A stretch of 32,000 bases of DNA from Silvanigrella paludirubra (GTDB lineage Bacteria; Bdellovibrionota_B; Oligoflexia; Silvanigrellales; Silvanigrellaceae): NCBI RefSeq assembly GCF_009208775.1, contig NZ_WFLM01000003.1, positions 69,374-101,373 on the forward strand, read 5' to 3'. The notes under the pieces were generated by a model. It was not told the DNA's origin. It did no database searches and was given only the letters and a program-made list of their open reading frames with translations. Positions 1-29,338 of the stretch are shown here, piece by piece (the stretch's first letter is position 1; each line of letters begins with the position of its first letter). The translations under genes were made by a program, and so were the position numbers.

Positions 1-858
1 TATAATGGAAAAACATATATTGATTATCCAATCTACTTAGGAAATAATTATAAGATTCCATTATTTGTTAGAGAAGGTGCTATTATTCCTCAAATGTTGG
101 TCGATGATAAAACAATGGATATGCTAGGGCTAAGAAGTGATGGAAGTAAAATAAATGATCTCATTTTAAAAGTAGTGCCGAGCAATAATAAAAGTGAATT
201 TACTTTATATGAAGATGATGGTCATTCTATAGATTATAAATCATCTAAATATTCTCAAACTTTAATTTCACAAATTAGATCAGGAAATAATATAACAGTG
301 TCTGTTTCTGCAATTCAAGGAAATTATAATGGAATGCCATTAAAGAGAAAACAATCTGTTGAAATTGCAATTCCAAACGAGACTTTATTATCAATAAATA
401 TAAATGGCAGTCTCTTAAATAAATGCACTGAAAATATAAATGAAAACTGCTGGACACAATCTAGCAGAAATTCTGTAATAGCAAAATTAGGGTATATAGC
501 TACAAATACATCCACTATTTATTCCTTTTCTCTAAAACAAAATGGAAGTAATTATTCGCAGTATAACTTTACATGTTTTAATTCTACAACAAAAACTGGT
601 GAATCTGTTTATATATTAGGTAATACTCCTGAACTTGGAAATTGGGATACATCAAAAGCAATTAAATTAAATCCCGTTGAATATCCAACTTGGTCAGGTT
701 ATTTTTCAAATATTTCTTCAAATACAAATAATATTCAATGGAAATGCCTTAAAAAGAATGATCAATCAAATAATGTTATACAATGGCAAAATGGTCCCAA
801 TAATACATTCAATTCAGTTGTTCGAGGATATGGAGGAAATGTTCAAGGTAGTTTTTAA
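1..858 (+). CDS. glycoside hydrolase, 3' part (GH31-like alpha-glucosidase C-terminus) with C-terminal CBM20 starch-binding module; 5' end lies outside the window
   Basis: Frame 1 is open from nt 1 (YNGKTYIDYPIYLGNNYKIPLFVREGAIIPQ...), so the listed ORF 94..858 is only an internal Met. PLFVREGAIIP resembles the conserved GH31 strand after the catalytic barrel. The last ~90 aa (GESVYILGNTPELGNWDTSKAIKL...IQWKCLKK...VIQWQNGPNNTF) match the CBM20 pattern (LGxW, aromatic platform, W-x-x-G-x-N). Confidence 0.6.
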   Translation, partial: YNGKTYIDYPIYLGNNYKIPLFVREGAIIPQMLVDDKTMDMLGLRSDGSKINDLILKVVPSNNKSEFTLYEDDGHSIDYKSSKYSQTLISQIRSGNNITVSVSAIQGNYNGMPLKRKQSVEIAIPNETLLSININGSLLNKCTENINENCWTQSSRNSVIAKLGYIATNTSTIYSFSLKQNGSNYSQYNFTCFNSTTKTGESVYILGNTPELGNWDTSKAIKLNPVEYPTWSGYFSNISSNTNNIQWKCLKKNDQSNNVIQWQNGPNNTFNSVVRGYGGNVQGSF

Positions 859-910
859 ATAAAAATATTATCTATTTAAAAACTTGATATTTATTTTGCG
901 TCAAATTCAT

Positions 911-952
911 TTATAGAGACTAATATTGTTATTTTATATTCAGTCTCTATAA
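911..952 (+). terminator. possible terminator or regulatory hairpin downstream of the glycosidase gene
   Basis: Perfect inverted repeat TTATAGAGACT (911-921) / AGTCTCTATAA (942-952) with a 20-nt loop, followed by the T-rich TTTATTAT. The long loop and A/T-rich stem make function uncertain. Confidence 0.3.
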
Positions 953-987
953 TTTATTATATGATAAATTTTTTATGGAGTTTTTAA

Positions 988-1518
988 ATGGTAAAAAAGA
1001 TTATTCTTATCATATTATTATTAATTGGATGTGTGCTTGGATACGCGGCATTTCAGCCATCTGAATATGTTATTGAAAGATCCATCCGAATAACAGCATC
1101 ACAACAAACCATATTTGCAAATGTAAATGATTTAAAAAAATTTAATGAATGGAACCCTTGGGCTAAACTCGACCCACAAACAAAAATGACATTTGATGGT
1201 CCAACAGAAGGATTAGGAGCAAGTTACAAATGGGAAGGAAACAATGAAGTTGGCGCAGGACGCATGTCAATCCAAAAAAGTGTACCAAATAATTTGGTCC
1301 AAATGAAACTTGAAATGTTTAAACCTTTTGAAGACGTCAGCTTTGTTGAATTTATCTTGAAACCTGAAGGCAGGGAAACTCTTATCACTTGGAGTATGAA
1401 AGGCAATGCCAACTACATATATAAATTATTATGTTTATTTATTAATAGAGATAAATTGGTTGGAAAAGAATTTGAAAAAGGACTTTCAAACTTAAAATTA
1501 ATGTCTGAAAAGAAGTGA
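988..1518 (+). CDS. SRPBCC-superfamily (polyketide cyclase/START-like) protein with N-terminal membrane anchor or signal
   Basis: 176 aa. GGAG lies 8 nt upstream of the ATG. Hydrophobic N-terminus KKIILIILLLIGCVLGYAAF. The body has the typical length and pattern of Polyketide_cyc2/SRPBCC proteins (WNPW...GxGxxYxW..., alternating beta pattern). Family call is by recollection only. Confidence 0.55.
   Translation: MVKKIILIILLLIGCVLGYAAFQPSEYVIERSIRITASQQTIFANVNDLKKFNEWNPWAKLDPQTKMTFDGPTEGLGASYKWEGNNEVGAGRMSIQKSVPNNLVQMKLEMFKPFEDVSFVEFILKPEGRETLITWSMKGNANYIYKLLCLFINRDKLVGKEFEKGLSNLKLMSEKK
1359..1518 (+). repeat. left copy of 160-nt direct repeat (3' end of the intact SRPBCC gene)
   Basis: Aligns base for base with 6013-6172 at an offset of 4654 nt. 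I count 5 mismatches: 1365, 1394, 1512, 1515 and 1517. Confidence 0.95.
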
Positions 1519-1632
1519 GGGGTTAAGACTCAACCTTAATTTTATCTGACGAAGATATTTACGTGTAATTCATTCTGTTCCATTCAAATTTTGCAAAAGA
1601 TATTTCATTTAGATATTAACTGCCAAAATAAT

Positions 1633-2391
1633 TTACATGTAAAGACCTCCATTAACAGAAATATCTGTGCCTGTAATAAATCCCGAATCTCTGCTGGCTA
1701 AAAAAGTAGCAATTCTAGCGACTTCATAAGTAGTGCCTAAACGTTTTTTAGGGACTCGACTAATAATTATATCCAATTCAGAATTATCTAATGTGGCGGT
1801 GAGATCTGTATTTATGTACCCAGGAGATATTGTATTTACAGTAATATCATAAGACGCTAGTTCTTGTGCAAGAGATTTAGTAAATCCATACATTGCTGAC
1901 TTTGTAGAACAATAATTTGATTCTTTTGATTGACCTTTATGCCCATTTACAGATGAAATATTAATAATTCTACCGAAATTATTATTTTTCATACATTTAA
2001 CTACTGGGTGAGTAATATTATATAAACTAGAAAAGTTTACATCAACAACTGTATTCCATTCAACAAAACTCATTTCAGAAAATTCTTTGTTTCTAGTAAT
2101 TCCAACGTTATTAACAAGGACATCAATTTTACTATTTTTTTGGATGATTTCAATAATTATTTTATCTATTGCCTCTTTATCTGTAATATCTGCTCTAATA
2201 ATATTAAAGAAGTTAAGATATTTATATTTCATTAAGTTATAAAATTCGACTGCCATTATATCATTTTTTTCATATAGAGCGTATACAATTGAACCATGTT
2301 TTAAAAAATCTTCAGATATGGCTTTACCAATACCTCTTGTTCCACCCGTCACAATTACAACATTTGAATTTACTGTGCTTTTATAATTCAT
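1633..2391 (-). CDS. classical short-chain dehydrogenase/reductase (FabG-like)
   Basis: TGGTRGIGKAI cofactor motif, NNVGI, catalytic S...YCSTK (YxxxK) and the PG motif SPGYINTD. Start moved to the ATG at 2391 (MNYKST...), which overlaps the xylA stop by 11 nt. The ORF-track start at 2430 would extend further into xylA. Confidence 0.85.
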   Translation of the reverse strand: MNYKSTVNSNVVIVTGGTRGIGKAISEDFLKHGSIVYALYEKNDIMAVEFYNLMKYKYLNFFNIIRADITDKEAIDKIIIEIIQKNSKIDVLVNNVGITRNKEFSEMSFVEWNTVVDVNFSSLYNITHPVVKCMKNNNFGRIINISSVNGHKGQSKESNYCSTKSAMYGFTKSLAQELASYDITVNTISPGYINTDLTATLDNSELDIIISRVPKKRLGTTYEVARIATFLASRDSGFITGTDISVNGGLYM

Positions 2392-3706
2392 TTTTAAATT
2401 CCCATAAATATTTGTTATATAAATTTTCAATTAATTCATGATTTTCAGAAACTACTTTTGGATTCAGATTATTAAGTAACATATGATCATAGAGATCTTT
2501 TAAGGAAAGTTCACTATTCATGATGCTATTTCCAAATTTTGAGTTCCATGCAGCATATTTATTTTTTATAATATCATCAAAAAAATTATCATTTATGATC
2601 TTTTCTGCAATTAATAAACTTTTTGCTAGTAAGTCAATTCCACCAATATGACTATAAAACAAATCATTTAAATCAGTACTTTGTCTTCGCAATTTTGCGT
2701 CAAAATTAAACCCACCATTTTTAAATCCACCATGCCTTAATATCGAATATATAATAAAGACTGTTTCATCTAAATTATTTGGAAATTGATCTGTATCCCA
2801 ACCAAGCTGTGGATCACCTCTATTTGCATCAATACTTCCAAAAATATTAAGATTAAACGCAGTTTCAACTTCGTGAGCAAAAGAATGACCTGCTAATGTT
2901 GCATGATTTGCTTCGATATTTACTTTTACTTCATTTTCTAAACCATAATTTTTTAGAAATGCGAATACAGTGGAAACATCAAAATCATATTGATGTTTAG
3001 TTGGCTCACATGGTTTTGGTTCAATTAAAATATCACCTTTAAAGCCTATTTTGTGTTTGTATTCAACAACTAGATTAACAAATTTACCGAGCTGCTTAAT
3101 TTCTCTGTTCATAGATGTATTTAAAATAGAAGTATAACCCTCTCTTCCTCCCCATAAGACATAATTTTGACCATTTAATTTGTGAGTTAGATCCATGGCA
3201 TTTTTAACTTTTGCCGCAGCATAACAAAATATTTCAGGGTTAGGATTCGTAGATGCGCCAGACATAAAGCGAGGATGAGAAAATAAATTAGAAGTTCCCA
3301 ATAATAACTTGATTTTTGTATATTCCATTTTTTTTAAGATATAATCTGTATGTCGTTTTGTTTTATCAACAAATTCTGCAAACGAATCAGATTCAGATAT
3401 TAAATCCGTATCATGAAAAGAAAAATATGGAACTCCCAATTTACTAATAAACTCAAACAAAGCATCTGTTTTTGCATAATCGAGATTAGATGAATCTTTA
3501 AACCAGTTACGTTTGAATGTACTCTCTCCAAATATATCATTACCCTGCCAACAGATAGTATGCCAACAGCATATACCAATTTTTAAAATATCCTCCATAC
3601 GCTGACCTAATACAATTTTATTTGGATTATAGTATCGATAAGCTAAGTTATTTCTTGAAGAAGAACCTTCATACATGATTTTTTCAACATTAGGAAAATA
3701 AGTCAT
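2381..3706 (-). CDS. xylA: xylose isomerase, class II (long) type
   Basis: 441 aa with long blocks that I recognise from E. coli/Bacillus XylA: FSFHDTD, YVLWGGREGY, LIEPKPCEPTKHQYDFD, NIEANHATLAGHSFAHE, DANRGDPQLGWDTDQFP, NFDAKLRRQSTD. All metal and catalytic positions appear intact. Confidence 0.92.
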   Translation of the reverse strand: MTYFPNVEKIMYEGSSSRNNLAYRYYNPNKIVLGQRMEDILKIGICCWHTICWQGNDIFGESTFKRNWFKDSSNLDYAKTDALFEFISKLGVPYFSFHDTDLISESDSFAEFVDKTKRHTDYILKKMEYTKIKLLLGTSNLFSHPRFMSGASTNPNPEIFCYAAAKVKNAMDLTHKLNGQNYVLWGGREGYTSILNTSMNREIKQLGKFVNLVVEYKHKIGFKGDILIEPKPCEPTKHQYDFDVSTVFAFLKNYGLENEVKVNIEANHATLAGHSFAHEVETAFNLNIFGSIDANRGDPQLGWDTDQFPNNLDETVFIIYSILRHGGFKNGGFNFDAKLRRQSTDLNDLFYSHIGGIDLLAKSLLIAEKIINDNFFDDIIKNKYAAWNSKFGNSIMNSELSLKDLYDHMLLNNLNPKVVSENHELIENLYNKYLWEFKNEL

Positions 3707-3710
3707 TTTT

Positions 3711-5438
3711 TTATTCTCTATTAAAAGTGTTTAAGTTTTTTAAAGCTAAGGATATTTCATCAATATTAATATCATTAACAAATACATGATTCCCTATTCC
3801 ATTAGGTAACGGAACTCTTTGATAGCCATCTCTGTGTAAAACACGTTCCTGTAAACTATTATATAATTTATTAGCAGATAATTTTGTACTTATTGGCAAA
3901 CCAAATTTTTTAATTAATTCTTTTATTCTTGATAATTCAGAGATAGAAATTAAATTTCTATTAAAAGCAATGATTGACGATATTAAAATATCAACCGCTA
4001 CCGCTTCACCGTGCAACAAATTTTCATCATCTGACATTTCAATAACTAAGCTAAAGGTATGACCAAAATCTACTATTCTTTCTAAGTCAAGCTCCAGGAA
4101 GTTATATTTTAACTCTTCAATCATATCATTTATTGATATATTTAAAATATCTCTTCCTAATAAATTTTGAAATTTATCCGTAATGGAAGTTACACCATGA
4201 TTTTCTAGTAACTCAAATAAATACTTATTTTTAATAACCCCTAATTTAATAATTTCACCAACCCCATTAATTAATTCTCTATCAGGTAGTGTTCTTAAAA
4301 ATGTTGAATCAAGAATACAACATAATGGGGAAGCAAAAGATCCAATTCTGTTTTTATTTTGATTAAAATTTATTCCAGTTTTAATTCCGATTGACGCATC
4401 AATATATCCCATTAAAGTTGTAGGAATTTTAATACAAGGAATACCTCTCCTATATATACTAGCAACAAATCCAGCTAAATCCGTTAATACACCACCACCA
4501 ATTGCAACAATTGGTTGACTACGACGTTGTACACCAAAATCATCTAATATTGTAATTAATTTAATTACATTTGTAATATTTTTATTTTCTTCTCCAGATT
4601 CAAATATAATTGAGTTATATTTTATTTTAAATTTATCAAAAAAGTTATTTATCATATAAATTTGCTCTTTGGATAGTCCAGAATCTAAAATAAGAAATAC
4701 CGCGTTTATTTCTTTAAATATTTTATCAAACATGATATTACTATGGGTGCTAAAAGCATTTCTTAATTCATAAATTTTGTATTCAATAAATGAATCTGAT
4801 TTAATGCTTCCATTAATTTCATTAATAAATGATTTTCCTTCAAATTTATCAATATCGATAAACTTCATATTTGCATTACGTGCAGCTTGAAATCCTGCCT
4901 CAGAATCTTCAAAGACTAAACAATTTTCAGGTGCAACTTTGTGCCTGATGGCTGCTTCAAGAAATAAGTCTGGTTCAGGTTTACCTAATTTAACATCATT
5001 AATTGTAATAATGTCAACAAAATATTTTGTTAAATTATTTATTGCAAGCATTTTACGTATAACTTCTGTTTCTCCTCCAGAAGCTACAATTAATGGTAAA
5101 ACCCCATAATATTTTTTAATAATATTAAGTGTCTTTTCAAATGGCTTCACTTTATTTATATAATTTTTAACGAAAATTTCATCTTTAAGCGCAATCGCTT
5201 TTTTAACATCTAAGCAATAATTTAATTGATGATTTAATACTTTTACTAATTCATCACCACTCGTTCCAGCGTAAGTATCAACAAATTCTTGATTAGATAC
5301 AAAAACACAACCTAATAAACTGTAAGTATCATTCCACGCTTTATAATGCGCCCATACGGTATCCATTAAAGTTCCGTCACAATCAAATATTAAAAGCTCT
5401 GTTTTGTTAAAATCGATAAATTTTTCTAAATATTCCAC
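3711..5438 (-). CDS. fusion protein: N-terminal HAD-IA phosphatase/phosphomutase domain plus C-terminal sugar phosphate cyclase (3-dehydroquinate synthase superfamily, EEVS/DDGS-like)
   Basis: GTG start at 5438 with AAGGA 5 nt upstream. HAD motifs: I FDCDGTLMDT, II IVASGG, III GKPEPD, IV FEDSEAG. Cyclase motifs: IGGGVLTDLAGFVASIYRRGIPCIKIPTTLMGYIDASIGIKTGINF, KNRIGSF, NGVGEIIKLG, DFGHTFS, LLHGEAVAVD. KNRxG and D-A-x-x-G-x-K-T-G-x-N-F resemble 2-epi-5-epi-valiolone-synthase-type enzymes more than AroB (KNLIGAF). The stop lies 4 nt from the xylA start. Confidence 0.75.
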   Translation of the reverse strand: MEYLEKFIDFNKTELLIFDCDGTLMDTVWAHYKAWNDTYSLLGCVFVSNQEFVDTYAGTSGDELVKVLNHQLNYCLDVKKAIALKDEIFVKNYINKVKPFEKTLNIIKKYYGVLPLIVASGGETEVIRKMLAINNLTKYFVDIITINDVKLGKPEPDLFLEAAIRHKVAPENCLVFEDSEAGFQAARNANMKFIDIDKFEGKSFINEINGSIKSDSFIEYKIYELRNAFSTHSNIMFDKIFKEINAVFLILDSGLSKEQIYMINNFFDKFKIKYNSIIFESGEENKNITNVIKLITILDDFGVQRRSQPIVAIGGGVLTDLAGFVASIYRRGIPCIKIPTTLMGYIDASIGIKTGINFNQNKNRIGSFASPLCCILDSTFLRTLPDRELINGVGEIIKLGVIKNKYLFELLENHGVTSITDKFQNLLGRDILNISINDMIEELKYNFLELDLERIVDFGHTFSLVIEMSDDENLLHGEAVAVDILISSIIAFNRNLISISELSRIKELIKKFGLPISTKLSANKLYNSLQERVLHRDGYQRVPLPNGIGNHVFVNDINIDEISLALKNLNTFNRE

Positions 5439-6012
5439 TTTAATCCTTCATTAAATAAAATTTAATTTATAACAACATTATTATAAATAAAAATAGATAT
5501 ATTCTAAAATAATATAAACAAATAAAGAATATTAATAAAATAGTCATATTTTAATTTTCATATAAAATTCAAATATGAGGTAATTAAACACATATTTTAT
5601 ATGTTTTCACGATAATTATATTTAAAATAAAAAAAGTTTATTTATAAAATTAGAACATAATTTAGAATATAAACCATGCGCAGCATCATGTTACGAATAG
5701 CATTTTGCAAATATCCAGTCAAATAATAAATTGGTTTATTTTTTTTAAATATTTTACAATATTAATTATAAATTAAATCGTTTTATCTAAAATATTATTT
5801 ATTCAATAAAATGTTATGAGTAGCTCATTATAAATATGAGTTTTTATAAAATAAATTCACTCTTCTTAAAATCTATGAAAATTAACAATTACTTTTAATT
5901 TGACATTAACCATTCTTCTTTTTTATATTAGCAAATATTTTTCATCATAATATTTCCATCTTGTTTTATAACTACACAAATATTGATTATTTTTTAAATA
6001 AGTTCATTTATA

Positions 6013-6172
6013 GAAACCAGAAGGCAGGGAAACTCTTATCACTTGGAATATGAAAGGCAATGCCAACTACATATATAAATTATTATGTTTATTTATTAAT
6101 AGAGATAAATTGGTTGGAAAAGAATTTGAAAAAGGACTTTCAAACTTAAAATTAATGTCTGAAAAAAACTAA
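6013..6172 (+). pseudogene. orphan 3' fragment of the SRPBCC gene (right copy of the 160-nt direct repeat)
   Basis: Encodes KPEGRETLITWNMKGNANYIYKLLCLFINRDKLVGKEFEKGLSNLKLMSEKN*, in frame and with its own stop. An in-frame TAG (6011-6013) closes it at the homology boundary. It has no start codon or RBS. Confidence 0.9.
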
Positions 6173-6183
6173 AAATTTGAAAA

Positions 6184-6687
6184 TTAATAAGCTCCATCCG
6201 CATAAATCATTTCATATGAATGAGAATATATTTCAATAATATTTCCAAAGGGATCTTCACAATAAACCATGCTAAAAGGTTTTACTCCTGGATTAAAGTA
6301 ACGAACTGGCATTCTTTGCTTGCCGCCTGCTTCTACAATTTTTTCTGCAAGTTCTTCAACATTTGGATCTTGAACACAAAAATGAAACAGTCCTGTTTTA
6401 AATGGAAAAAATTCAGGCATTGGCAATGAATTTGTTTGAGGAAACTCAAACAACTCAACCCCTATTTTATCTGAAGTTGATAAATGAGCAATTCTAAAAC
6501 TTCCGTAACCAGGTCCAAAAACATCTTTACACATCATACCAATAACAGATTTTGGATCTTCTCTAATTTCAGTTGGACGCATAATCATATAAAAACCTAA
6601 AACTTCTTCGTAAAACTGAATCGCTTTTTCTAAATCAGGGACAGTAATTCCGATATGAGAAAACGCTCTAGGGTATGGTTTATTCAT
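6184..6687 (-). CDS. VOC-family (glyoxalase/bleomycin-resistance/dioxygenase fold) protein
   Basis: FSHIGITVPDLEKAIQFYEEVLGF is a typical VOC N-terminal beta-alpha-beta-beta-beta module, and a second module is present (HFCVQDPNVEELAEKIVEAGG...DPFGNIIEI). Start set at the ATG at 6687, preceded by AAGGAG. The upstream extension to 6738 has no RBS. Confidence 0.75.
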   Translation of the reverse strand: MNKPYPRAFSHIGITVPDLEKAIQFYEEVLGFYMIMRPTEIREDPKSVIGMMCKDVFGPGYGSFRIAHLSTSDKIGVELFEFPQTNSLPMPEFFPFKTGLFHFCVQDPNVEELAEKIVEAGGKQRMPVRYFNPGVKPFSMVYCEDPFGNIIEIYSHSYEMIYADGAY

Positions 6688-6853
6688 TATATACTCCTTA
6701 TAAATTTTAGTTTTTAGTATGTAATGCAAAAGAAACATGAAATTATGGCGTAGGACAAAATTAAGTTAACATATTTATTATTTTTGTCAAATAAATTGAG
6801 AGTATAAATTCATTTACTTTTTTTTAAACTTAAAATTTAAAAATAAATATATT

Positions 6854-11679: not shown

Positions 11680-13467
11680 ATGTTAAAACAGCTAAATATA
11701 CAAAATCTAGCTATTGCAGAGAATATATCTGTCCATTTTCAAAAAGGATTAAATGTCATCACAGGAGAAACAGGCGCAGGAAAGTCTTTACTAGTAGATG
11801 CCATGTGCCTTCTAAGGGGATGTAGAGTTGACACTAAATTAATAAGAACAGGTCATGAAAGCGCTCTGGTCACTGGAATATTCACTCCAAATAAAAACGA
11901 TTCCTCCATATTTTCTACGCTTGAAGAGTTTGGAATTCCTCTTTATTCAGACGACCCCGATGAAATTGTTATTAAAAGATATATTCAAAGAAATGGAAAA
12001 CACCGAGCTACGATTAATGAAACCATAGTAAGCTCTAAAACTCTTCAATATATATCTGGCGAATTAATAGATATTAGCAGTCAGTTTGAAAATCAAAGAT
12101 TATTAGATAGTGATACTCACACCTCCTTTTTAGATGAGTTTGCCCAAAACACATTAAATTATAAAAATTATATTCATCATTTTAATTTAGGCCATGAACA
12201 ACTAAAGCAATTAAAACAATTAATATTTGAACAAGATTTATTAAGAAGGGAAAAAAATTTATATGAATTTGAACTTTCTCAAATAAATGAAGCCAATATT
12301 TCTTTAAATGAATTTAAAAAAATAGAAGATATTATTTCATTAGGCAACAAATCAAATTTGTTAAAAAGAATTTGTTCTGAAATCAATATGAATTTATCAA
12401 ATGATGAAGTTAATTGTTTAGATCTTTTAAAACATTCAAGAAAAAATATTGAAAAATTAATTAAATTATCTGGTCAAACTGAAATTCCAATTCAATCAGA
12501 AAAAATGGATGAAATCATTTTTCTTTTAGAAGAGCTTGTTCTTAAAATTGAACAAACCTCAAATAAATTTGAAATAGATGAATCCTTATTAAACCAAGCA
12601 TCACAAAGAATCGAAATTTATAATAAATTATTGATTAAATATGGCCCAACCATAGAAGATATTTTTTTGTATAAAAATAAATGTGAAAGTTATTTATTGA
12701 AAGCAGAAAATATAGAAAATGAAATGATTAACTTATCTAAAAAATGTGAAAAAACTTTGAAAAATGCCCTAACACTTTCTGAAGAATTAAAAAACTCGAG
12801 AATGAGCAAATTAGATTATATTTCATTGTCCATAGAAAAAGAACTTTCTGAATTAGGCATGCCTAAATCAAAGTTTATTTGTGAATTAAAAGAAAATATA
12901 AAATATCAAGATGAACAAAAAACTCTTGAATTTATAAACTCAAAAATATCTCAAGAATTATTAAAAAATTTCTTTTCATTATCAAAGTCTGGGTCTGAAA
13001 AAGCACAATTTTTATTAAGTACAAATGTAGGTATTGAAGCTCAAGCCATTGAAAAAGTGGCAAGTGGCGGAGAATTATCAAGAGTAATGCTTGCGATTAA
13101 AAATGTTTTATTTGATGAAGAAACAATGAGTGTCTTTGTTTTTGACGAAATTGACACTGGCATTAGTGGAAATATTGCGGCTAAAGTAGGTAGAAAATTA
13201 TCCGATTTCTGCAAAAATTCATATGGTAACATAACAAGACAAGCATTGTGCATCACTCACTTGCCACAAGTTGCTTGTTATGCTCAAAATCATTTTGTTG
13301 TTTCGAAAGAACTCAGAAACAACAAAACAGTAACAAAAATAATTCAAGCGAATAAAGACGAAAAAATAAACGAAATCGCTATTCTTTTATCTGGTGAAGA
13401 AATTAGCCAAGAAAGTCTTGCACAGGCTAAAGTTTTAGTTATGGAAGCGCAAAAAGAACTTCATTAA
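11680..13467 (+). CDS. recN: DNA repair protein RecN
   Basis: L-x-I-x-N-x-A-I N-terminus, Walker A GETGAGKS, a long coiled-coil middle, SMC-type signature ASGGELSRVMLA and Walker B VFVFDEIDTGISG. ATG at 11680 with AAGGA 7 nt upstream; the track start at 11662 is a TTG. Confidence 0.9.
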   Translation: MLKQLNIQNLAIAENISVHFQKGLNVITGETGAGKSLLVDAMCLLRGCRVDTKLIRTGHESALVTGIFTPNKNDSSIFSTLEEFGIPLYSDDPDEIVIKRYIQRNGKHRATINETIVSSKTLQYISGELIDISSQFENQRLLDSDTHTSFLDEFAQNTLNYKNYIHHFNLGHEQLKQLKQLIFEQDLLRREKNLYEFELSQINEANISLNEFKKIEDIISLGNKSNLLKRICSEINMNLSNDEVNCLDLLKHSRKNIEKLIKLSGQTEIPIQSEKMDEIIFLLEELVLKIEQTSNKFEIDESLLNQASQRIEIYNKLLIKYGPTIEDIFLYKNKCESYLLKAENIENEMINLSKKCEKTLKNALTLSEELKNSRMSKLDYISLSIEKELSELGMPKSKFICELKENIKYQDEQKTLEFINSKISQELLKNFFSLSKSGSEKAQFLLSTNVGIEAQAIEKVASGGELSRVMLAIKNVLFDEETMSVFVFDEIDTGISGNIAAKVGRKLSDFCKNSYGNITRQALCITHLPQVACYAQNHFVVSKELRNNKTVTKIIQANKDEKINEIAILLSGEEISQESLAQAKVLVMEAQKELH

Positions 13468-13583
13468 ATAAAAATAGACAACCAATTTATAATAATAAAT
13501 TATCATTGATATATTTCTAAATTTGACTAAATTTATGTTTGTCTCCTTTCTTTCATTTGCAATTAACAGAATTGGAAATAAAA

Positions 13584-14621
13584 ATGGCACAAACATTATC
13601 CATAAATTTATCTAAAGAAATTCATCTTGCCTCAAGACCAATTGGACTTCCTAAATTAAATGATTTTATATTAGTTGAAAAAAAAATACCTGAAGTTAAA
13701 GAAGAAGAAGTTTTAGTACAAAATATTTGGATGTCTGTTGACCCCTATATGAGAGGAAGAATGGACGACTCACCTAGCTACATCCCACCATTTAAACTAG
13801 ACTCCCCTTTAGAAGGAAGTGCAATTGGAAAAGTAATTTCTTCTAAATCAACAAAATTTACAGAAGGCGAATATGTAATTAGTATGTTTGGATGGAGAGA
13901 AGCATTTGTTTCTCAAGCAAAATATTTAAAAAAATTAAATCTCACGGACATGCCTAACTCGTTACCAATTGAGCTACATTTAAGTATTTTAGGAAATGCA
14001 GGATTAACCGCTTACGCTGCTTTATTCCGAATCGCAAATTTAAAACCAAGTGAAAAAGTATTTATATCAGGAGCGACGGGAGCTGTTGGTTCTGTTGCTT
14101 GTGCACTAGCTAAATCCATAGGCTGTTACGTTGTGGGAACTGCTGGCAGTGAAGAAAAAAGAAAATGGCTTGAAAAAGAATTAAAAATTGATGTCGCAAT
14201 TAATTATAATGACACCCGCTTTTCAGAATCAATTACACAGGCGTTTCCACAAGGTATAGACGTTTATCTTGAAAATGCTGGGGGCGAACAACTTCGTGTT
14301 GCATTAGATAATATGAAACAATTTGGACGTATTGCATTTTCAGGAATGATTGATGGATATAATAATGTTACTCAAAAACCAGGTCCATCAAATTTATTTC
14401 AAATTATTAAAAAGAGTTTAAAATTAGAAGGATTTATTTCAACAAATCACCAAGATTTAAATGAAAGTTTTTTAAATTGTGCTTATCAATTATTAAATTC
14501 TGGTAAATTAAAATGGAATCATAGTGTTTCAGAAGGAATTGAATCTTCTCCACAAGCAATGATTGATCTTTTTACAGGAAAAAGTTTTGGAAAGACTTTA
14601 GTCAAATTAAGCGCAAGCTAA
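13584..14621 (+). CDS. NADP-dependent oxidoreductase, MDR superfamily (YncB/CurA, alkenal/one reductase-like)
   Basis: SVDPYMRGRM motif, nucleotide-binding ISGATGAVGSVA, and length and layout typical of the leukotriene-B4-dehydrogenase/YncB subgroup. Start set at the ATG at 13584; the track start is a TTG. Confidence 0.8.
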   Translation: MAQTLSINLSKEIHLASRPIGLPKLNDFILVEKKIPEVKEEEVLVQNIWMSVDPYMRGRMDDSPSYIPPFKLDSPLEGSAIGKVISSKSTKFTEGEYVISMFGWREAFVSQAKYLKKLNLTDMPNSLPIELHLSILGNAGLTAYAALFRIANLKPSEKVFISGATGAVGSVACALAKSIGCYVVGTAGSEEKRKWLEKELKIDVAINYNDTRFSESITQAFPQGIDVYLENAGGEQLRVALDNMKQFGRIAFSGMIDGYNNVTQKPGPSNLFQIIKKSLKLEGFISTNHQDLNESFLNCAYQLLNSGKLKWNHSVSEGIESSPQAMIDLFTGKSFGKTLVKLSAS

Positions 14622-15863: not shown

Positions 15864-17045
15864 TTATAATTGATGATTATTTTTTGAAAGATCACATATT
15901 AATTGATTACGCTTTAGTTTACCAAGTTCAGTCCTCGGAATTTTATCTATAAAATAAATATTTTTTATTTTCTCAAAAGGAAAAACTCTTTTATTAAATT
16001 CATTTTTAATTTGGTCAAATAATTTACTAGATTTTATATTATCTTTTGTAAAAACAAGTGAAATTTTATTTTCCAATCGTTCATCTTTTTCATAAATAAC
16101 TGCAGCATCATCATTATATTCAAGTTCTGTTTTTAAATCTAATAAAATATGATCTAATCTAGATAAAGAAACATTCTCACCTGAAACTTTAATAACATCA
16201 TCACTTCTTCCATAAATTTGAAGAAATGAATCCTTAATATTACCAATATCTGAAGTAATTAAATACTTATCTGATTCATTTGAAATATGAGTTTTAACAT
16301 CTAAAAATTGAGTTTCATTATTTTTTAAAATTATGTATCCAGTTAATAAAGAAGAACCTGAAATACTTAAATTTCCATATTCATTTTTTTTAACATTTAA
16401 ATGATCTAAAATTTTTAATTCTGGATAGGTTGTTTCCCATTTAAAATTTATAGCAGCAGTTGCAATTTGAGAAGCACATTCCGTCATTCCATAGCTTGGT
16501 AATAAAGGCCAATTTAATTTTTTTGCTTTGTCATATAAAGATTTTGATAAAGCACCACCACCAACCACAACGGCTCTAAGGGACGGAGGGGAAGTCAAAT
16601 TTTGATTGATTAAATCATAAATTTGTGTTGGAACTAAAGAAGCAATAGTTACTTTATTTTTAATAATTTCTTGTATGAAATAATTTGCATCCCATTTTAA
16701 AGAATCAGAATATACATTTATTAATTTTGCACCACTTAAATAAGACCTAGAATATAATGATAAGCCACCAATATGAAAATAGGGTAGGGCATTTAAAAGA
16801 ATATCATTTTTAGTACAATCTAAATGATTGTTAACTGATTTTGAAGAATTTAAAATCGCATTTTTACTCAAGGCTACAAATTTCATTTCACTTGAATTTA
16901 AAGCAGTTGAGCCTGATGTTGCTAAAATAATATGGGATTCAAGAGAATAATCTTTAATCACTTTATTCAAAGATAAATTATGTAATGGCAAGGCTTTAGG
17001 ATTTAAAAAAACATGGGATTCATTGGAAAGCCAATCTATTTTCAT
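15864..17045 (-). CDS. menE: o-succinylbenzoate-CoA ligase-like ANL adenylating enzyme (short form)
   Basis: ANL motifs YGMTECAS, ITSDIG, GRSDDVIKVSGENV and IPRTELGKLKR. The P-loop is atypical (TSGSTALNSS rather than TSGTTGxPK). The ATG at 17045 forms an ATGA overlap with the menC stop, with GGAG 10 nt upstream. The men assignment rests on operon context. Confidence 0.7.
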   Translation of the reverse strand: MKIDWLSNESHVFLNPKALPLHNLSLNKVIKDYSLESHIILATSGSTALNSSEMKFVALSKNAILNSSKSVNNHLDCTKNDILLNALPYFHIGGLSLYSRSYLSGAKLINVYSDSLKWDANYFIQEIIKNKVTIASLVPTQIYDLINQNLTSPPSLRAVVVGGGALSKSLYDKAKKLNWPLLPSYGMTECASQIATAAINFKWETTYPELKILDHLNVKKNEYGNLSISGSSLLTGYIILKNNETQFLDVKTHISNESDKYLITSDIGNIKDSFLQIYGRSDDVIKVSGENVSLSRLDHILLDLKTELEYNDDAAVIYEKDERLENKISLVFTKDNIKSSKLFDQIKNEFNKRVFPFEKIKNIYFIDKIPRTELGKLKRNQLICDLSKNNHQL

Positions 17046-18082
17046 ACAAGTCTTCTCCAACGTTCTTTGCTTAATAGTTTATCAAAACCAAATCCATATC
17101 CCTCATTAGAAGGTATTAATTTTGTATCTATAACTGAAAATGTCTCTGAATAACAATTATTTTCATATAAAGTATGTGTTAATAAACCGCACTCATTTAT
17201 TTTTTGCTTATTTTTTACGTAAAACAGAGAGGACTCATATAAAGCGCATAATTGCCCTAAAGGATGATCCATATAACTTGTAAAAAGAATATTCTTGCTC
17301 GTATTGGGATCGATGTTTTCTTCGGAAAAATATTGAATAGCAGGTTTTAATATTAAATAATCAAAGGATAATGAATTTATAAAATTGTTTTTTAATTCAT
17401 TATCTTTAATTCTATCTATTCCAAGTTTTATATTTGGATACTTTGTTTTAATATGTAGCCAATCATTTTCAGAAAATAAAATTGGATCTTCTAAAAAATC
17501 AATTAAATTTAAAAACTCACCAATCTCATTTAAAAAATAAAAAATTTTCTCAAAATCACAAGAATTATTAAAATCTAATCTTAGCTTTATATTTAATTTT
17601 TTTAAAATCTGAGAATTATTTTTAATAACTTGAGCTTCATTTTTTAAATTTAGGCCACATTTTATTTTAATTTTTAAAAATCCTTGCTCATTTAATTGTT
17701 CAATAAATTCGCTTGATAGCAAATTAACATCAGTACAAGTAAAATGATTTTTAGGTATAAATAATCCACTAAAAATATTTTGTTTTTTTGCTCGATATAA
17801 AGAATCTATGTAAGAAAAATAAATGCTCTTTTTTAAATGAATATTATATTCATTATTTTTTAAATTTAAAATTTGATCTTTCAAAGAAAAATCTCCAAGC
17901 TCTTCCCATGAAAAACAATCAGAATAGCCCTCACCAGTTTCTTTAAAATTTATTTTAAGTAAAAAACCCGGTCTGTGATTTGAAGATTTATATTTTGAAT
18001 TTAAACTATATTTTGGCTTTAAAGTATACTCTGCTATTTCAATATTTTGAATTTGTGATTGGATATTAAAAAATTTATTCAT
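17042..18082 (-). CDS. menC: o-succinylbenzoate synthase (enolase superfamily)
   Basis: Enolase-superfamily landmarks in order: KIKIKCG (KxK), KLRLDFN, IDFLEDP, LGIDR and LILKP. Sits in the men operon. Confidence 0.7.
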   Translation of the reverse strand: MNKFFNIQSQIQNIEIAEYTLKPKYSLNSKYKSSNHRPGFLLKINFKETGEGYSDCFSWEELGDFSLKDQILNLKNNEYNIHLKKSIYFSYIDSLYRAKKQNIFSGLFIPKNHFTCTDVNLLSSEFIEQLNEQGFLKIKIKCGLNLKNEAQVIKNNSQILKKLNIKLRLDFNNSCDFEKIFYFLNEIGEFLNLIDFLEDPILFSENDWLHIKTKYPNIKLGIDRIKDNELKNNFINSLSFDYLILKPAIQYFSEENIDPNTSKNILFTSYMDHPLGQLCALYESSLFYVKNKQKINECGLLTHTLYENNCYSETFSVIDTKLIPSNEGYGFGFDKLLSKERWRRLV

Positions 18083-18908
18083 TTGTATAAAATTTTATAT
18101 TCATCTTTTTAGATGATTCTATTTTAGAATTTATATCATATCTTTGTTCATAAAATTGCATTGAGCTGTCAGGTTTAATTCCAAATAATAAAGTTGAATT
18201 TGTACCATATTTTTCACTAGAAATAAACAAAGAGGATAAAAAAACCTCTTGTTCTGGCGGGACACCTGTATCTGGTAGATCAGAGATATCATAAGTTTTA
18301 TTGTTCATCATCTCAGTCTTAAAATAGATCCAATAATCATCAAACGTTTTTAATTTATTATCCTGATTATTAAAAAAGGCTGAAAACGTTTTTTTGGTAT
18401 TTTTAATTTTTGGCCAATTTGAATCTATTTTACCATTACTCAATCCAAAAATTTTTTTTGTATTATCACCTGTTTTAAATAATAATTTACTTTCATGATC
18501 TTTACTATGATAATAATAAATGCACTCACCATCTGAAAAAATTAAATTAAAATAATTATATTCATGGGCTATTTTTTTAAGACGATTTAAGTATGATTCT
18601 GCTGTATCACTTGAATTTAAAAAATCTAGAATAATATCACCTCTAGACTTTAAGTCTTCTTTATAAGATTTTAAATGGCGAATATTTGTTAATATAGCCC
18701 ATTTTGGATTGATTATATTTTGACAAGCAAACCAAGTGCCCTTTTTATATTCATCGCGAGGCGCAATAATATCATTGCCATAAAATTGCAAATCACGATC
18801 CCAACCATTAATATTGGAAGATTTTCTTTTTTTATATTCATCTCTATTAGAGATAATTACTATAGGAAAATCTTTTATTTGATTAATGAATAAAAACAAT
18901 GTGCACAA
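18075..18908 (-). CDS. NRDE-family protein (DUF833, TANGO2 homologue)
   Basis: TTG start followed directly by Cys (M-C-T-L-F). Eponymous motif VIISNRDEY at residues ~17-25. Length of 277 aa is typical of the family. It lies 6 nt after menA and overlaps menC by 8 nt. Confidence 0.8.
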   Translation of the reverse strand: MCTLFLFINQIKDFPIVIISNRDEYKKRKSSNINGWDRDLQFYGNDIIAPRDEYKKGTWFACQNIINPKWAILTNIRHLKSYKEDLKSRGDIILDFLNSSDTAESYLNRLKKIAHEYNYFNLIFSDGECIYYYHSKDHESKLLFKTGDNTKKIFGLSNGKIDSNWPKIKNTKKTFSAFFNNQDNKLKTFDDYWIYFKTEMMNNKTYDISDLPDTGVPPEQEVFLSSLFISSEKYGTNSTLLFGIKPDSSMQFYEQRYDINSKIESSKKMNIKFYTNE

Positions 18909-18914
18909 ATTAAA

Positions 18915-19829
18915 TTACCTTATAAAAAAGCCAATCCCCATTAAAAATCCAAATAAAATTTGAGTTAAGGCAGACATACCCAAATATTTATTAAATATTT
19001 GAGATGGTTCGTTATTTAGTATACTTATAATAATTTTAATTGCTAGAGGTAAAGTTAGCATTGGTAACAAACCTGCCCATATATTTCCGCTATAAACCCA
19101 ATAAATATTAAGCAAATAAGTAAATAAAAATAAAAGAACAATTTCAATTCTAGCAAATTTTTTTCCGAATCGAGCCGCCAATGTCATTTTACCAACTCGT
19201 TTATCACCTATATAATCTCTAAAATTATTAATAGAAATTAATACTGTTGCAAGTAAGCCTACTTGAAGACCAGCTATTATAGGAGCTGCAGTAATAAATC
19301 CAGTTTGTAAATAAAAAACACCAAGAACTGCCGTAAATCCAAAAAATAAAATAACAAATAATTCGCCTAAACCAACATAAGCTAAAGGATAAGGGCCGCC
19401 AGTATATAAATATCCAAATAATAAAGAAATAATTCCAATTATTATGATTGGAATTCCCCCATGAATAACGATTGGTATTGAAAAAAGAATGGCAATCAAA
19501 AAACTTAAAAATCCACCAAACATGACTTGTTTTGAATTTAAAAGACCACTTTGAGTTACTCTTTTAGGACCTAACCTATTTTCATCATCTGCTCCCTTTT
19601 TGAAATCAAGAGCGTCATTAATTAAATTGGTTCCAATTTGAATAAAAATAGAAGCAAGTAGGGCAAATATACTATATGCCCATGTTACTTTATTTTCTGT
19701 AGGGCGTAAAACAGAATATGCAACAGCAGTTGCAACAAAAATAGGGGTAAATGCGGCTGATAATGTTTTAGGTCTTGAAGCCAAAATCCAAGGAATTATT
19801 TTATTTGTTTTTTTTAGCGTGTTATCCAT
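18915..19829 (-). CDS. menA: 1,4-dihydroxy-2-naphthoate polyprenyltransferase (UbiA family)
   Basis: ASRPKTL N-terminal motif, NDALDFKKGADDENRLGP (first Asp-rich motif), second motif NNFRDYIGDKRVGK, and ~9 TM helices. Confidence 0.85.
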   Translation of the reverse strand: MDNTLKKTNKIIPWILASRPKTLSAAFTPIFVATAVAYSVLRPTENKVTWAYSIFALLASIFIQIGTNLINDALDFKKGADDENRLGPKRVTQSGLLNSKQVMFGGFLSFLIAILFSIPIVIHGGIPIIIIGIISLLFGYLYTGGPYPLAYVGLGELFVILFFGFTAVLGVFYLQTGFITAAPIIAGLQVGLLATVLISINNFRDYIGDKRVGKMTLAARFGKKFARIEIVLLFLFTYLLNIYWVYSGNIWAGLLPMLTLPLAIKIIISILNNEPSQIFNKYLGMSALTQILFGFLMGIGFFIR

Positions 19830-19835
19830 TTATCC

Positions 19836-20660
19836 TCACGGAAATCTATCGAATTTATTAAAATCGGGTTTTCTTTTTTCAATGAAGGCTTCTTTTCCTT
19901 CTTTTGCTTCTTCACTTAAGTAATAAAGAAGTGTTGCATTTCCAGCTAAATCAAGCAAACCAATTTGTCCATCACAATCTGCATTTAAGGAAGCTTTTAA
20001 ACAGCGTAATGCAAGTGGAGAATGCTCTAACATTTCTCGGCACCATTTTAATGTTTCTGCTTCAAGTTCATCTACAGGAACAACATGATTTACTAATCCC
20101 ATTTCTAAAGCTTGTGTTGCATTATATTGACGACATAAATACCAAATTTCTCTTGCTTTCTTTTGTCCTACAATTCTTGCTAAATAACTACTTCCAAGAC
20201 CACCATCAAATGAGCCTACTTTAGGTCCTGTTTGTCCAAACTTAGCATTATCTCCTGCAATCGTGAGATCACAAACAACATGTAGAACATGCCCCCCACC
20301 AATTGCATAGCCAGCAACCATAGCTACAACTGGCTTTGGCATAGACCTTATCGCTTTTTGGACGTCTAATATATTTAAACGTGGCAAACCATCTTGACCA
20401 ACATAACCACCATTTCCTCTTACTTTTTGATCGCCACCTGAACAAAATGCCTCTTTGCCTTCACCGGTTAATATAATGACACCGATTTTTGAATTATCTC
20501 TGCATATTTCAAAAGCCTGTAATAATTCTTTTACGGTTTCAGGACGAAATGCATTTCGTACATGAGGGCGGTTTATCGTTATTTTTGCTATACCATCTTC
20601 TGTTCTATCTAATTTAATATCTTGAAACTCATGCATTGTATTCCAAATATTTAAGCTCAT
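19836..20660 (-). CDS. menB: 1,4-dihydroxy-2-naphthoyl-CoA synthase
   Basis: Crotonase fold with MenB-specific blocks [44 protein letters not shown] and a C-terminal [14 protein letters not shown]. Start set at the ATG at 20660, preceded by AAGGAG; the track start at 20756 adds 32 unsupported residues. Confidence 0.95.
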
Positions 20661-20835
20661 AGTGGACTCCTTCATAAAGAGAATTGTAAGTATATCCATA
20701 CCATATTTGTATTTACTTATTTTCTGTTGAAAATTCAACAATTTTGATTCGACCAAAATATATTGAAAAAATATATTTTAAATATTTTTTTACTTGTCTG
20801 AAAACACTTAAGAAACATTATTTCAATTTTTTTAT

Positions 20836-28957: not shown

Positions 28958-29338
28958 ATGACAGAAAAGAAAAAGACAAAACCAACAAAATTAGAGTGGG
29001 TTGGGTCGCTCATATCGACTACAGAAGAAAAACCAATATCATTAAAAGGAAGCGAGTCTTCATCTCAAAAGAATGAAAAAAGACCGGCTCAAAAAATCAA
29101 AGGGAAAGTGCAAGCCCGGAAAGAAACAAAGGGGAGAGCAGGAAAACCTGTGGCTATATTATTTAACTTTACAGATCCAGAAGCAAATAATGAGGAAAGT
29201 TTAAAATTACTTTGTTCCGAATTAAAAAATAAATTAGCTTGTGGCGGAACGATAGAAAATAAAGAAATCATCTTAACATTAAGAGATTTTGATAAATTAA
29301 AAGAAGTTTTAATGAAGTTAGACATTACCTTGAAGTAG
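28958..29338 (+). CDS. yciH: SUI1/eIF1-family translation initiation factor homologue
   Basis: The C-terminal SUI1 domain pattern (KGRAGKPVAILFNF...LKNKLACGGTIENKEIILTLRDF) follows a basic, low-complexity N-terminus. AAGGTGGA RBS. Confidence 0.85.
   Translation: MTEKKKTKPTKLEWVGSLISTTEEKPISLKGSESSSQKNEKRPAQKIKGKVQARKETKGRAGKPVAILFNFTDPEANNEESLKLLCSELKNKLACGGTIENKEIILTLRDFDKLKEVLMKLDITLK

Follow-up and report, generated by a model that had tools for sequence, protein, structure and literature searches.

How can a complete metabolic operon come to lie inside a duplicated gene end when no gene for its own mobility lies with it? This question is raised by a locus in Silvanigrella paludirubra, of which a 32-kb stretch (hereafter the window) was analysed; the source is a cultured isolate, the type strain (SP-Ram-0.45-NSY-1), and not a metagenome-assembled genome (MAG). 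In this locus an intact gene of the SRPBCC family (988-1518, plus strand; Pfam Polyketide_cyc2; 176 aa, identical to KAB8038705.1/WP_153419952.1) is followed by an insert of about 4.5 kb with a three-gene sugar-cyclitol operon, which encodes a HAD-cyclase fusion protein, a xylose isomerase, and an SDR-type reductase. Beyond the insert the last 160 nucleotides (nt) of the SRPBCC gene are found a second time. The operon has been inserted at this place, and the native end of the gene now lies on the far side of it.

The left copy of the repeat, the working 3' end of the SRPBCC gene (1359-1518, plus strand), recurs in direct orientation at 6013-6172 (plus strand) with five mismatches (left/right copy: 1365 T/A, 1394 G/A, 1512 G/A, 1515 G/C, and 1517 G/A). 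Pairwise alignment, a repeat finder, and the raw sequence agree on this and reproduce exactly the repeat and the mismatches listed in a preliminary description of this DNA. The repeat finder reports 1359-1514 versus 6013-6168 (156 nt, 98%), while the runner-up direct repeat in the window measures 40 nt at 75%, which places the 160-nt repeat far above chance. Three of the five mismatches fall within the final 7 nt, and the uninterrupted repeat is therefore 1359-1511 (153 nt, two mismatches), including a perfect stretch of 117 nt (1395-1511). Similarity drops sharply at both outer edges. The right copy stays in frame, is closed by an in-frame TAG at its 5' edge (6011-6013), and ends in its own TAA, 11 nt before the stop of a convergent VOC/glyoxalase-family gene (6184-6738, minus strand; Pfam, NCBIfam, and synteny); the abrupt edges, the frame, and both stop codons were likewise described before and are all present in the sequence. 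The possibility that the unit is a dispersed multi-copy repeat, which the preliminary description had raised against its own account, finds no support: there are two copies in the window, one per related locus, and single copies in the metagenome matches. A 31-mer from the invariant part has no match in IMG/VR and two in the JGI metagenomes, both single-copy empty sites, and a second SRPBCC fragment is absent from the 41 related loci searched (L001-L040 and L042). A separate, exact 12-nt direct repeat (ATAATATTTCCA) is found at 5947-5958, 55 nt before the right repeat copy, and at 6236-6247 within the VOC gene; it is probably due to chance in AT-rich DNA.

The direction of the event can be read from related loci reached through SRPBCC homologues, namely L001/L002/L036 (89% amino acid identity), L004 (a Silvanigrella sp. 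MAG, 86%), L003 (97%), L035, and L043-L048. An empty site, as the preliminary description had anticipated, is present in five allelic lineages (L001/L002/L036; L004; L003; L035; L043-L046 with L048), where the convergent VOC gene comes 10-11 nt after the SRPBCC stop in all relatives with flanking sequence (L047 has no flank). On this synteny the VOC gene is the original convergent neighbor of the SRPBCC gene, as had been supposed. Upstream, the C-terminal part of a GH31 glycosidase with a CBM20 domain (94-858, plus strand; Pfam DUF5110 and CBM_20) is the neighbor of the SRPBCC gene in all relatives with enough flank, and downstream the long contigs share a 161-aa hypothetical protein, an ABC exporter, KAS III, an SMC-like gene, and an MFS transporter. 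Because closely related flanks surround empty sites (in L035 up to 96.6% identity for GH31 and 99.5% for VOC), the insert is a derived state in the S. paludirubra lineage. Its absence from relatives with flanks that are 94-99% identical is also the better support for a recent event. The near-identity of the two copies, from which recency was argued before, is a weak argument, since 5 differences in 160 nt (3.1%) are about the orthologue distance of sister strains.

The opposite polarity, in which the repeat-flanked operon was ancestral in the clade and the relatives lost it by recombination between the repeats, is very unlikely. Such a deletion would give exactly the chimeric single copy that the relatives carry, and 117 nt of exact homology is enough for RecA. 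However, all five lineages with an intact gene are empty, including the outgroup clade at about 89%, so that several independent losses would be needed, and filled sites are at present confined to the S. paludirubra tip; every empty-site relative lacks the T at 1380 and the T at 1486 that are found in the window copies; and the origin of the duplication would be left unexplained. One further lineage, L042/L049, is identical to the left copy over 1359-1420, and there the operon is unscorable owing to an IS982-like insertion.

This sibling lineage (96.5% identical to window 1-1420) carries its insertion sequence (IS) inside the same SRPBCC 3' end, with junctions at 3695/3696 in L042 and 1781/1782 in L049, equivalent to 1420/1421 of the window. 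The IS encodes a DDE_Tnp_1_3 (IS982-like) transposase on the minus strand and is unrelated to the insert in the window. In L049 the SRPBCC gene additionally has a nonsense codon (GAA>TAA) near window 1330. Because of the IS and the nonsense codon, the SRPBCC gene seems to be dispensable, and its 3' end has been struck twice in independent events. In L050 (574-606) similarity to SRPBCC is lost past window 1150, 32 nt before the contig end, which could be a third rearrangement or contig-end noise.

Since the S. paludirubra genome is a short-read draft (MiSeq 2x300, SPAdes, 43x; PMC7386786), it has to be asked whether a separate plasmid or circle, or a mixture of strains, was threaded into the chromosome by the assembler through the shared repeat. 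The data give this explanation hardly any credibility: the DNA comes from a cultured isolate, there is unique sequence at both junctions, and the longest exact stretch, of 117 nt, falls short of both the read length (300 nt) and a SPAdes k of 127. The latter is the largest default k of this assembler. As the stretch is shorter than the reads, the linkage of 1394G with 1512G and of 6048A with 6166A would be read directly.

Which end of the gene is native follows from the five sites at which the copies differ. The close relatives (L035, L003, the L042 lineage, and L043-L048) agree with the left copy at 1365 and 1394 and with the right copy at 1512, 1515, and 1517. At 6019 and 6048, the equivalents of 1365 and 1394, the right copy has an A, and these changes are private to it (1365A occurs in none of 12 relatives). 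If the 5' part of the left copy is combined with the 3' part of the right copy, the reconstructed host allele agrees with the sister strains at all five sites, whereas the complementary allele differs at all five. From 6141 (1487 in the register of the repeat) and for 67 nt beyond its end, the right copy is identical to L035, and it encodes the native C-terminus, EKN followed by stop. From 1512 on, the left copy (GAAGTGAGGGG...) has no match among the relatives, and EKK is the C-terminus of the working protein; the last two codons and stop of the gene (AAG AAG TGA, 1512-1518, plus strand) are seen in no relative in the site tables or among the protein C-termini. The stop is kept at the same codon, and a lysine at that place is also found in L001. 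The right end is native and the left end is foreign; 1512-1518 is either a replacement gene end or else the first bases of the insert. A T at 1380 is common to both copies and found elsewhere only in the sibling L042, and a T at 1486, also common to both, is in no informative relative. Within the 153-nt core there are 2 differences between the copies and 3-5 between sister-strain orthologues, which are small numbers.

A mosaic pattern of divergence is found when window 94-6738 is compared with L035. It amounts to 3.4-5.4% in GH31, in SRPBCC, and in the right copy over its first 128 nt, and to 0.5% from about 6141 through the VOC gene (6/128 versus 3/598 mismatches; Fisher p = 0.0014). This indicates a recombination breakpoint near the insertion site.

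The operon itself lies on the minus strand. Its first gene (3711-5438) encodes a fusion of an N-terminal HAD-IA hydrolase of the beta-phosphoglucomutase family with a sedoheptulose-7-phosphate cyclase (Pfam) and is identical to the S. paludirubra protein at NCBI; the nearest solved structure is 4P53 (PDB), whose molecule was deposited as 'Cyclase'. Among full-length proteins the fusion is found only in S. paludirubra. Its best full-length matches besides S. paludirubra are cyclases of about 50% identity from Anaerolineales and others, which have no HAD domain, and its homologues carry the names sedoheptulose 7-phosphate cyclase or 2-epi-5-epi-valiolone synthase. The second gene (2381-3706) encodes the xylose isomerase XylA (identical to KAB8038707.1; NCBIfam TIGR02630 equivalog, 616 bits against a cut-off of 533), and a genuine XylA beside a C7-cyclitol cyclase is an odd pairing. 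The third gene (1633-2391) encodes an SDR/FabG-like reductase (Pfam adh_short, NCBIfam). Its longest open reading frame (ORF) starts with TTG at 2430 and overlaps the xylose isomerase gene by 50 nt, whereas the ATG at 2391 gives a protein of 252 aa and an overlap of 11 nt; the latter is the likely start, because the orthologue in L037 has 252 aa as well.

Non-coding DNA borders the operon on both sides, as a spacer of 114 nt between the SRPBCC and SDR stops (1519-1632, 28% GC) and an AT-rich region of 574 nt upstream of the operon (5439-6012, 15.5% GC). Neither holds an ORF of at least 30 aa wholly inside it, an Rfam family, a terminator-like site, or convincing terminal repeats, and an RNA scan in and around the insert gave a single sub-threshold snoRNA match only. 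The spacer has no counterpart in the 36 related loci searched. When the relatives' sequence, or the 5' portion of another, decaying SRPBCC copy, was sought in the two regions, only low-complexity AT-rich matches were found.

Outside S. paludirubra, a 90%-identical relative of the xylose isomerase occurs on three short freshwater metagenome contigs (L037-L039), which have 28% GC and hold all three genes at 87% nucleotide identity; the 87%-identical operon comes from the samples ERZ27271969, IMG 3300025487, and 3300004777. In L037 the homology ends exactly at the SDR stop codon, and the 132 nt that adjoin it show no relationship to window 1632-1359 (local score 14 versus 16.6 +/- 2.6 for shuffles; a control intergenic piece scored 86 versus 22). 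By this comparison the operon is present in a related low-GC lineage in another context. A more distant contig (L040) combines a xylose isomerase with a cyclase that has no HAD domain and, in place of the SDR, an aldo-keto reductase; the triad of cyclase, xylose isomerase, and reductase is a recurring cassette in unrelated contigs. In GC content, GC at third codon positions, codon usage, and tetranucleotide distance the cargo lies within the range of host genes, so that composition can neither date nor source the insert. The comparison of k-mers and codon usage with the flanks, which the preliminary description had proposed, gave no foreign signal, and compositional foreignness of the cargo is rejected.

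How could this arrangement have arisen? The explanation that we favor, and to which we give an even chance of being right, is a single reciprocal crossover of the Campbell type between the chromosome and a circle of about 4.65 kb that carried its own allele of the SRPBCC end. Campbell-type integration of a non-replicating circle is known from insertion-duplication in the laboratory and from the integration of specialized transducing DNA; a single crossover in short homology leaves the cargo between direct copies, with chimeric alleles, and requires no site-specific enzyme. In the case of S. paludirubra the circle would have consisted of the three-gene operon, its flanking non-coding DNA, and a 3' end allele of about 160 nt, and the crossover would have taken place inside the 117-nt identical stretch (1395-1511). 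Such an exchange would yield a working gene composed of the host 5' part and the incoming last codons (EKK and stop), and would move the native end (EKN and stop) 4.65 kb to the right, where it would persist as an untranslated fragment beside the VOC gene. The chimeric split of the five discriminating sites is what a single reciprocal crossover within 1395-1511 is expected to produce, and it is this pattern, together with the ORF closing at the native codon and a geometry like that of the element e14, that leads us to favor this reading. From base composition we estimate that a stop would fall at that exact codon by chance in about 5-10% of cases.

The likeness to the integration of the cryptic prophage e14, or of phage 21, into the 3' end of icd in Escherichia coli K-12 is close. 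There, too, the gene end is duplicated including the stop (165 nt, against 160 here), the working gene ends in element DNA, and the displaced native end persists at the far junction as an untranslated fragment, icdC. The novelty seen before in a protein-coding target was accordingly overstated. The two cases differ in that e14 measures 15.2 kb and carries intE, xisE, and phage genes, whereas the present insert has 4.5 kb and no recombinase, and in that the copies at icd differ at 11 positions along the whole repeat, whereas here 5 differences are confined to the two ends. As the insert has no recombinase, the exchange would have been catalyzed either by an integrase whose gene lay in trans or was later deleted, or by the RecA of the host, with the 150 nt of homology as substrate, and we weight these about equally. 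The donor was perhaps a low-GC bacterium, possibly a relative of Silvanigrella, that plausibly carried an SRPBCC allele; a low-GC donor fits the host-like composition of the operon and the 87%-identical copy in contigs of 28% GC. Laboratory integration of the Campbell type resembles the locus in its cargo flanked by direct homology copies and in its chimeric alleles, but no natural source is known here for a circle with exactly this gene end and this operon.

Several results weigh against the crossover with a circle. A Pfam scan covered 31 large ORFs across the 32 kb (at least 120 aa beyond 9 kb; an ORF at 28958-29338 was left out), and none of the 31 has a recombinase, integrase, excisionase, transposase, or conjugation domain, which for the first four of these agrees with the preliminary description. 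No recombinase is recorded upstream in the syntenic relative L001 either, and at 114 and 574 nt the non-coding parts of the insert leave no room for a hidden, decayed integrase. In the related loci searched, the SRPBCC site has no other occupant apart from the unrelated IS in L042, and IMG/VR, the JGI metagenomes, PLSDB, and INPHARED yielded neither a copy of the segment that is free or carried by an element nor a relative among phages or plasmids. The flank of the operon in L037 is unrelated, so that there is no conserved element end on the SDR side. The T at 1380 and the T at 1486 shared by both copies would mean that the incoming allele came from the same population or that the copies were homogenized, and the three differences in the last 7 nt may just as well mark the point where the homology ends.

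The strongest competitor takes up the last of these points. In one step, a linear operon fragment may have been joined illegitimately to the chromosome at two points that lie 153 nt from each other, through template switching or an unequal join of sister strands, thereby duplicating 1359-1511. The last 7 nt of the gene would then be the first bases of the insert, the closure of the ORF would be due to chance, and the T>A and G>A changes of the right copy would have arisen later. We consider this a serious rival, possible although clearly less probable than the crossover. It needs neither a recombinase nor a pre-existing homologous allele and thus fits the recombinase-free window. The two copies of the 153-nt core are each other's closest relatives, with 2 differences against 3-5 between sister strains, and have 1380T and 1486T in common; three mismatches in 7 nt after 117 perfect matches resemble a homology boundary; both changes of the right copy are private to an untranslated sequence, and the G>A change is toward A+T; and with an SRPBCC gene that seems to be dispensable in the siblings, preservation of its ORF need not be selected. 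Against it stand the coincidence of the ORF closing at the native codon, at the 5-10% given above, and the nature of the insert, a tidy and complete operon with both intergenic flanks. A target duplication of about 150 nt is, moreover, not a known regular outcome, and we know of no bacterial insertion pathway that gives one regularly. Homology-facilitated illegitimate recombination was considered and set aside, since it replaces or deletes the recipient DNA next to the anchor and does not duplicate it.

Other known classes of inserted DNA match the locus in part. An IS or composite transposon is characterized by a transposase, terminal inverted repeats, and a target duplication of 2-15 nt; the insert has no transposase domain and no terminal inverted repeats, tandem or inverted repeats at its ends amount to AT-rich noise only, and its duplication measures 153-160 nt. 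With a self-encoded integrative element it shares the flanking direct repeats and the empty site in relatives, but no recombinase of its own is found in the 31 ORFs, the 574-nt region, or the upstream genes of L001. Phage or plasmid origin is rejected, as IMG/VR has no match to the repeat, to the insert ends, or to the fusion protein, and PLSDB and INPHARED return generic xylA similarity only. Recurrent attachment at the SRPBCC 3' end is rejected as well, given that none of the 41 related loci holds a second gene fragment. The interpretation offered earlier, site-specific integration into a gene 3' end, survives in part: there is a real insertion, with a displaced native end and a replacement end (EKK and stop) on the side of the insert, but site-specificity is not supported, for want of a recombinase, an att-type feature, or a second occupant. 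With the islands that target tRNA or tmRNA genes the locus shares the duplicated target 3' end that is restored by incoming DNA; it differs in its protein-gene target, in having no tRNA or tmRNA gene in the window, and in having no adjacent integrase.

A parallel for a small island without integrase is given by the cis-mobilizable elements (CIMEs) of streptococci. These are cargo-only islands of 1.2-13 kb with att repeats at the 3' ends of fda, rpsI, rpmG, and tRNA genes, which have no integrase or transfer genes, often contain carbohydrate-metabolism genes, and are recognized by att sites common to integrative and conjugative or integrative and mobilizable elements on the same target, usually in tandem (PMC7563491). 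The insert resembles them in its small cargo-only format, its direct repeats at a gene 3' end, its carbohydrate-metabolism cargo, and its lack of genes for an integrase or for transfer. If an integrase acted in trans, or if its gene was lost afterward, the history of the insert would be CIME-like. In contrast to the CIMEs, there is no tandem element in the window and no partner or second occupant in the related loci, IMG/VR, or the JGI metagenomes, and the host belongs to the Silvanigrellales, a separate and little-studied order. In view of these systems, a protein-coding target and a replacement 3' end are established features, and for the absence of a recombinase there is a precedent too.

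The locus offers a polarized gene gain in the Silvanigrellales, whose mobile elements are essentially undescribed, and both the filled and the empty site can be followed down to the base. It shows how a complete metabolic operon can enter a chromosome and leave no mobility gene, and the 117-nt perfect repeat left behind could delete the operon again. If the event was driven by RecA and not by an integrase, natural insertion-duplication would be a route of operon acquisition. This is a single instance, and its geometry has a textbook precedent in e14/icd. A bolder extension, which we think improbable, would be that the insert is a minimal mobile cassette without recombinase, made up of an operon and an 'address tag' of about 150 nt from the end of a host gene, which circularizes and re-inserts through host homologous recombination; gain and precise loss would then occur within a population without a dedicated mobility gene.

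Farther along the window, at 13539-14621, the window and L001 have a zinc-type alcohol dehydrogenase (plus strand) between the SMC-like gene and the MFS transporter, where L043 has a different gene with a faint lactonase match (12493-13494, minus strand). This swap of alcohol dehydrogenase and lactonase-like genes is a second gene-replacement polymorphism in the neighborhood. A TANGO2-family protein (18075-18908) is encoded within an apparent set of menaquinone genes (17042-20756), which comprises an OSBS-like gene, a UbiA prenyltransferase, and an enoyl-CoA hydratase/MenB-like gene.

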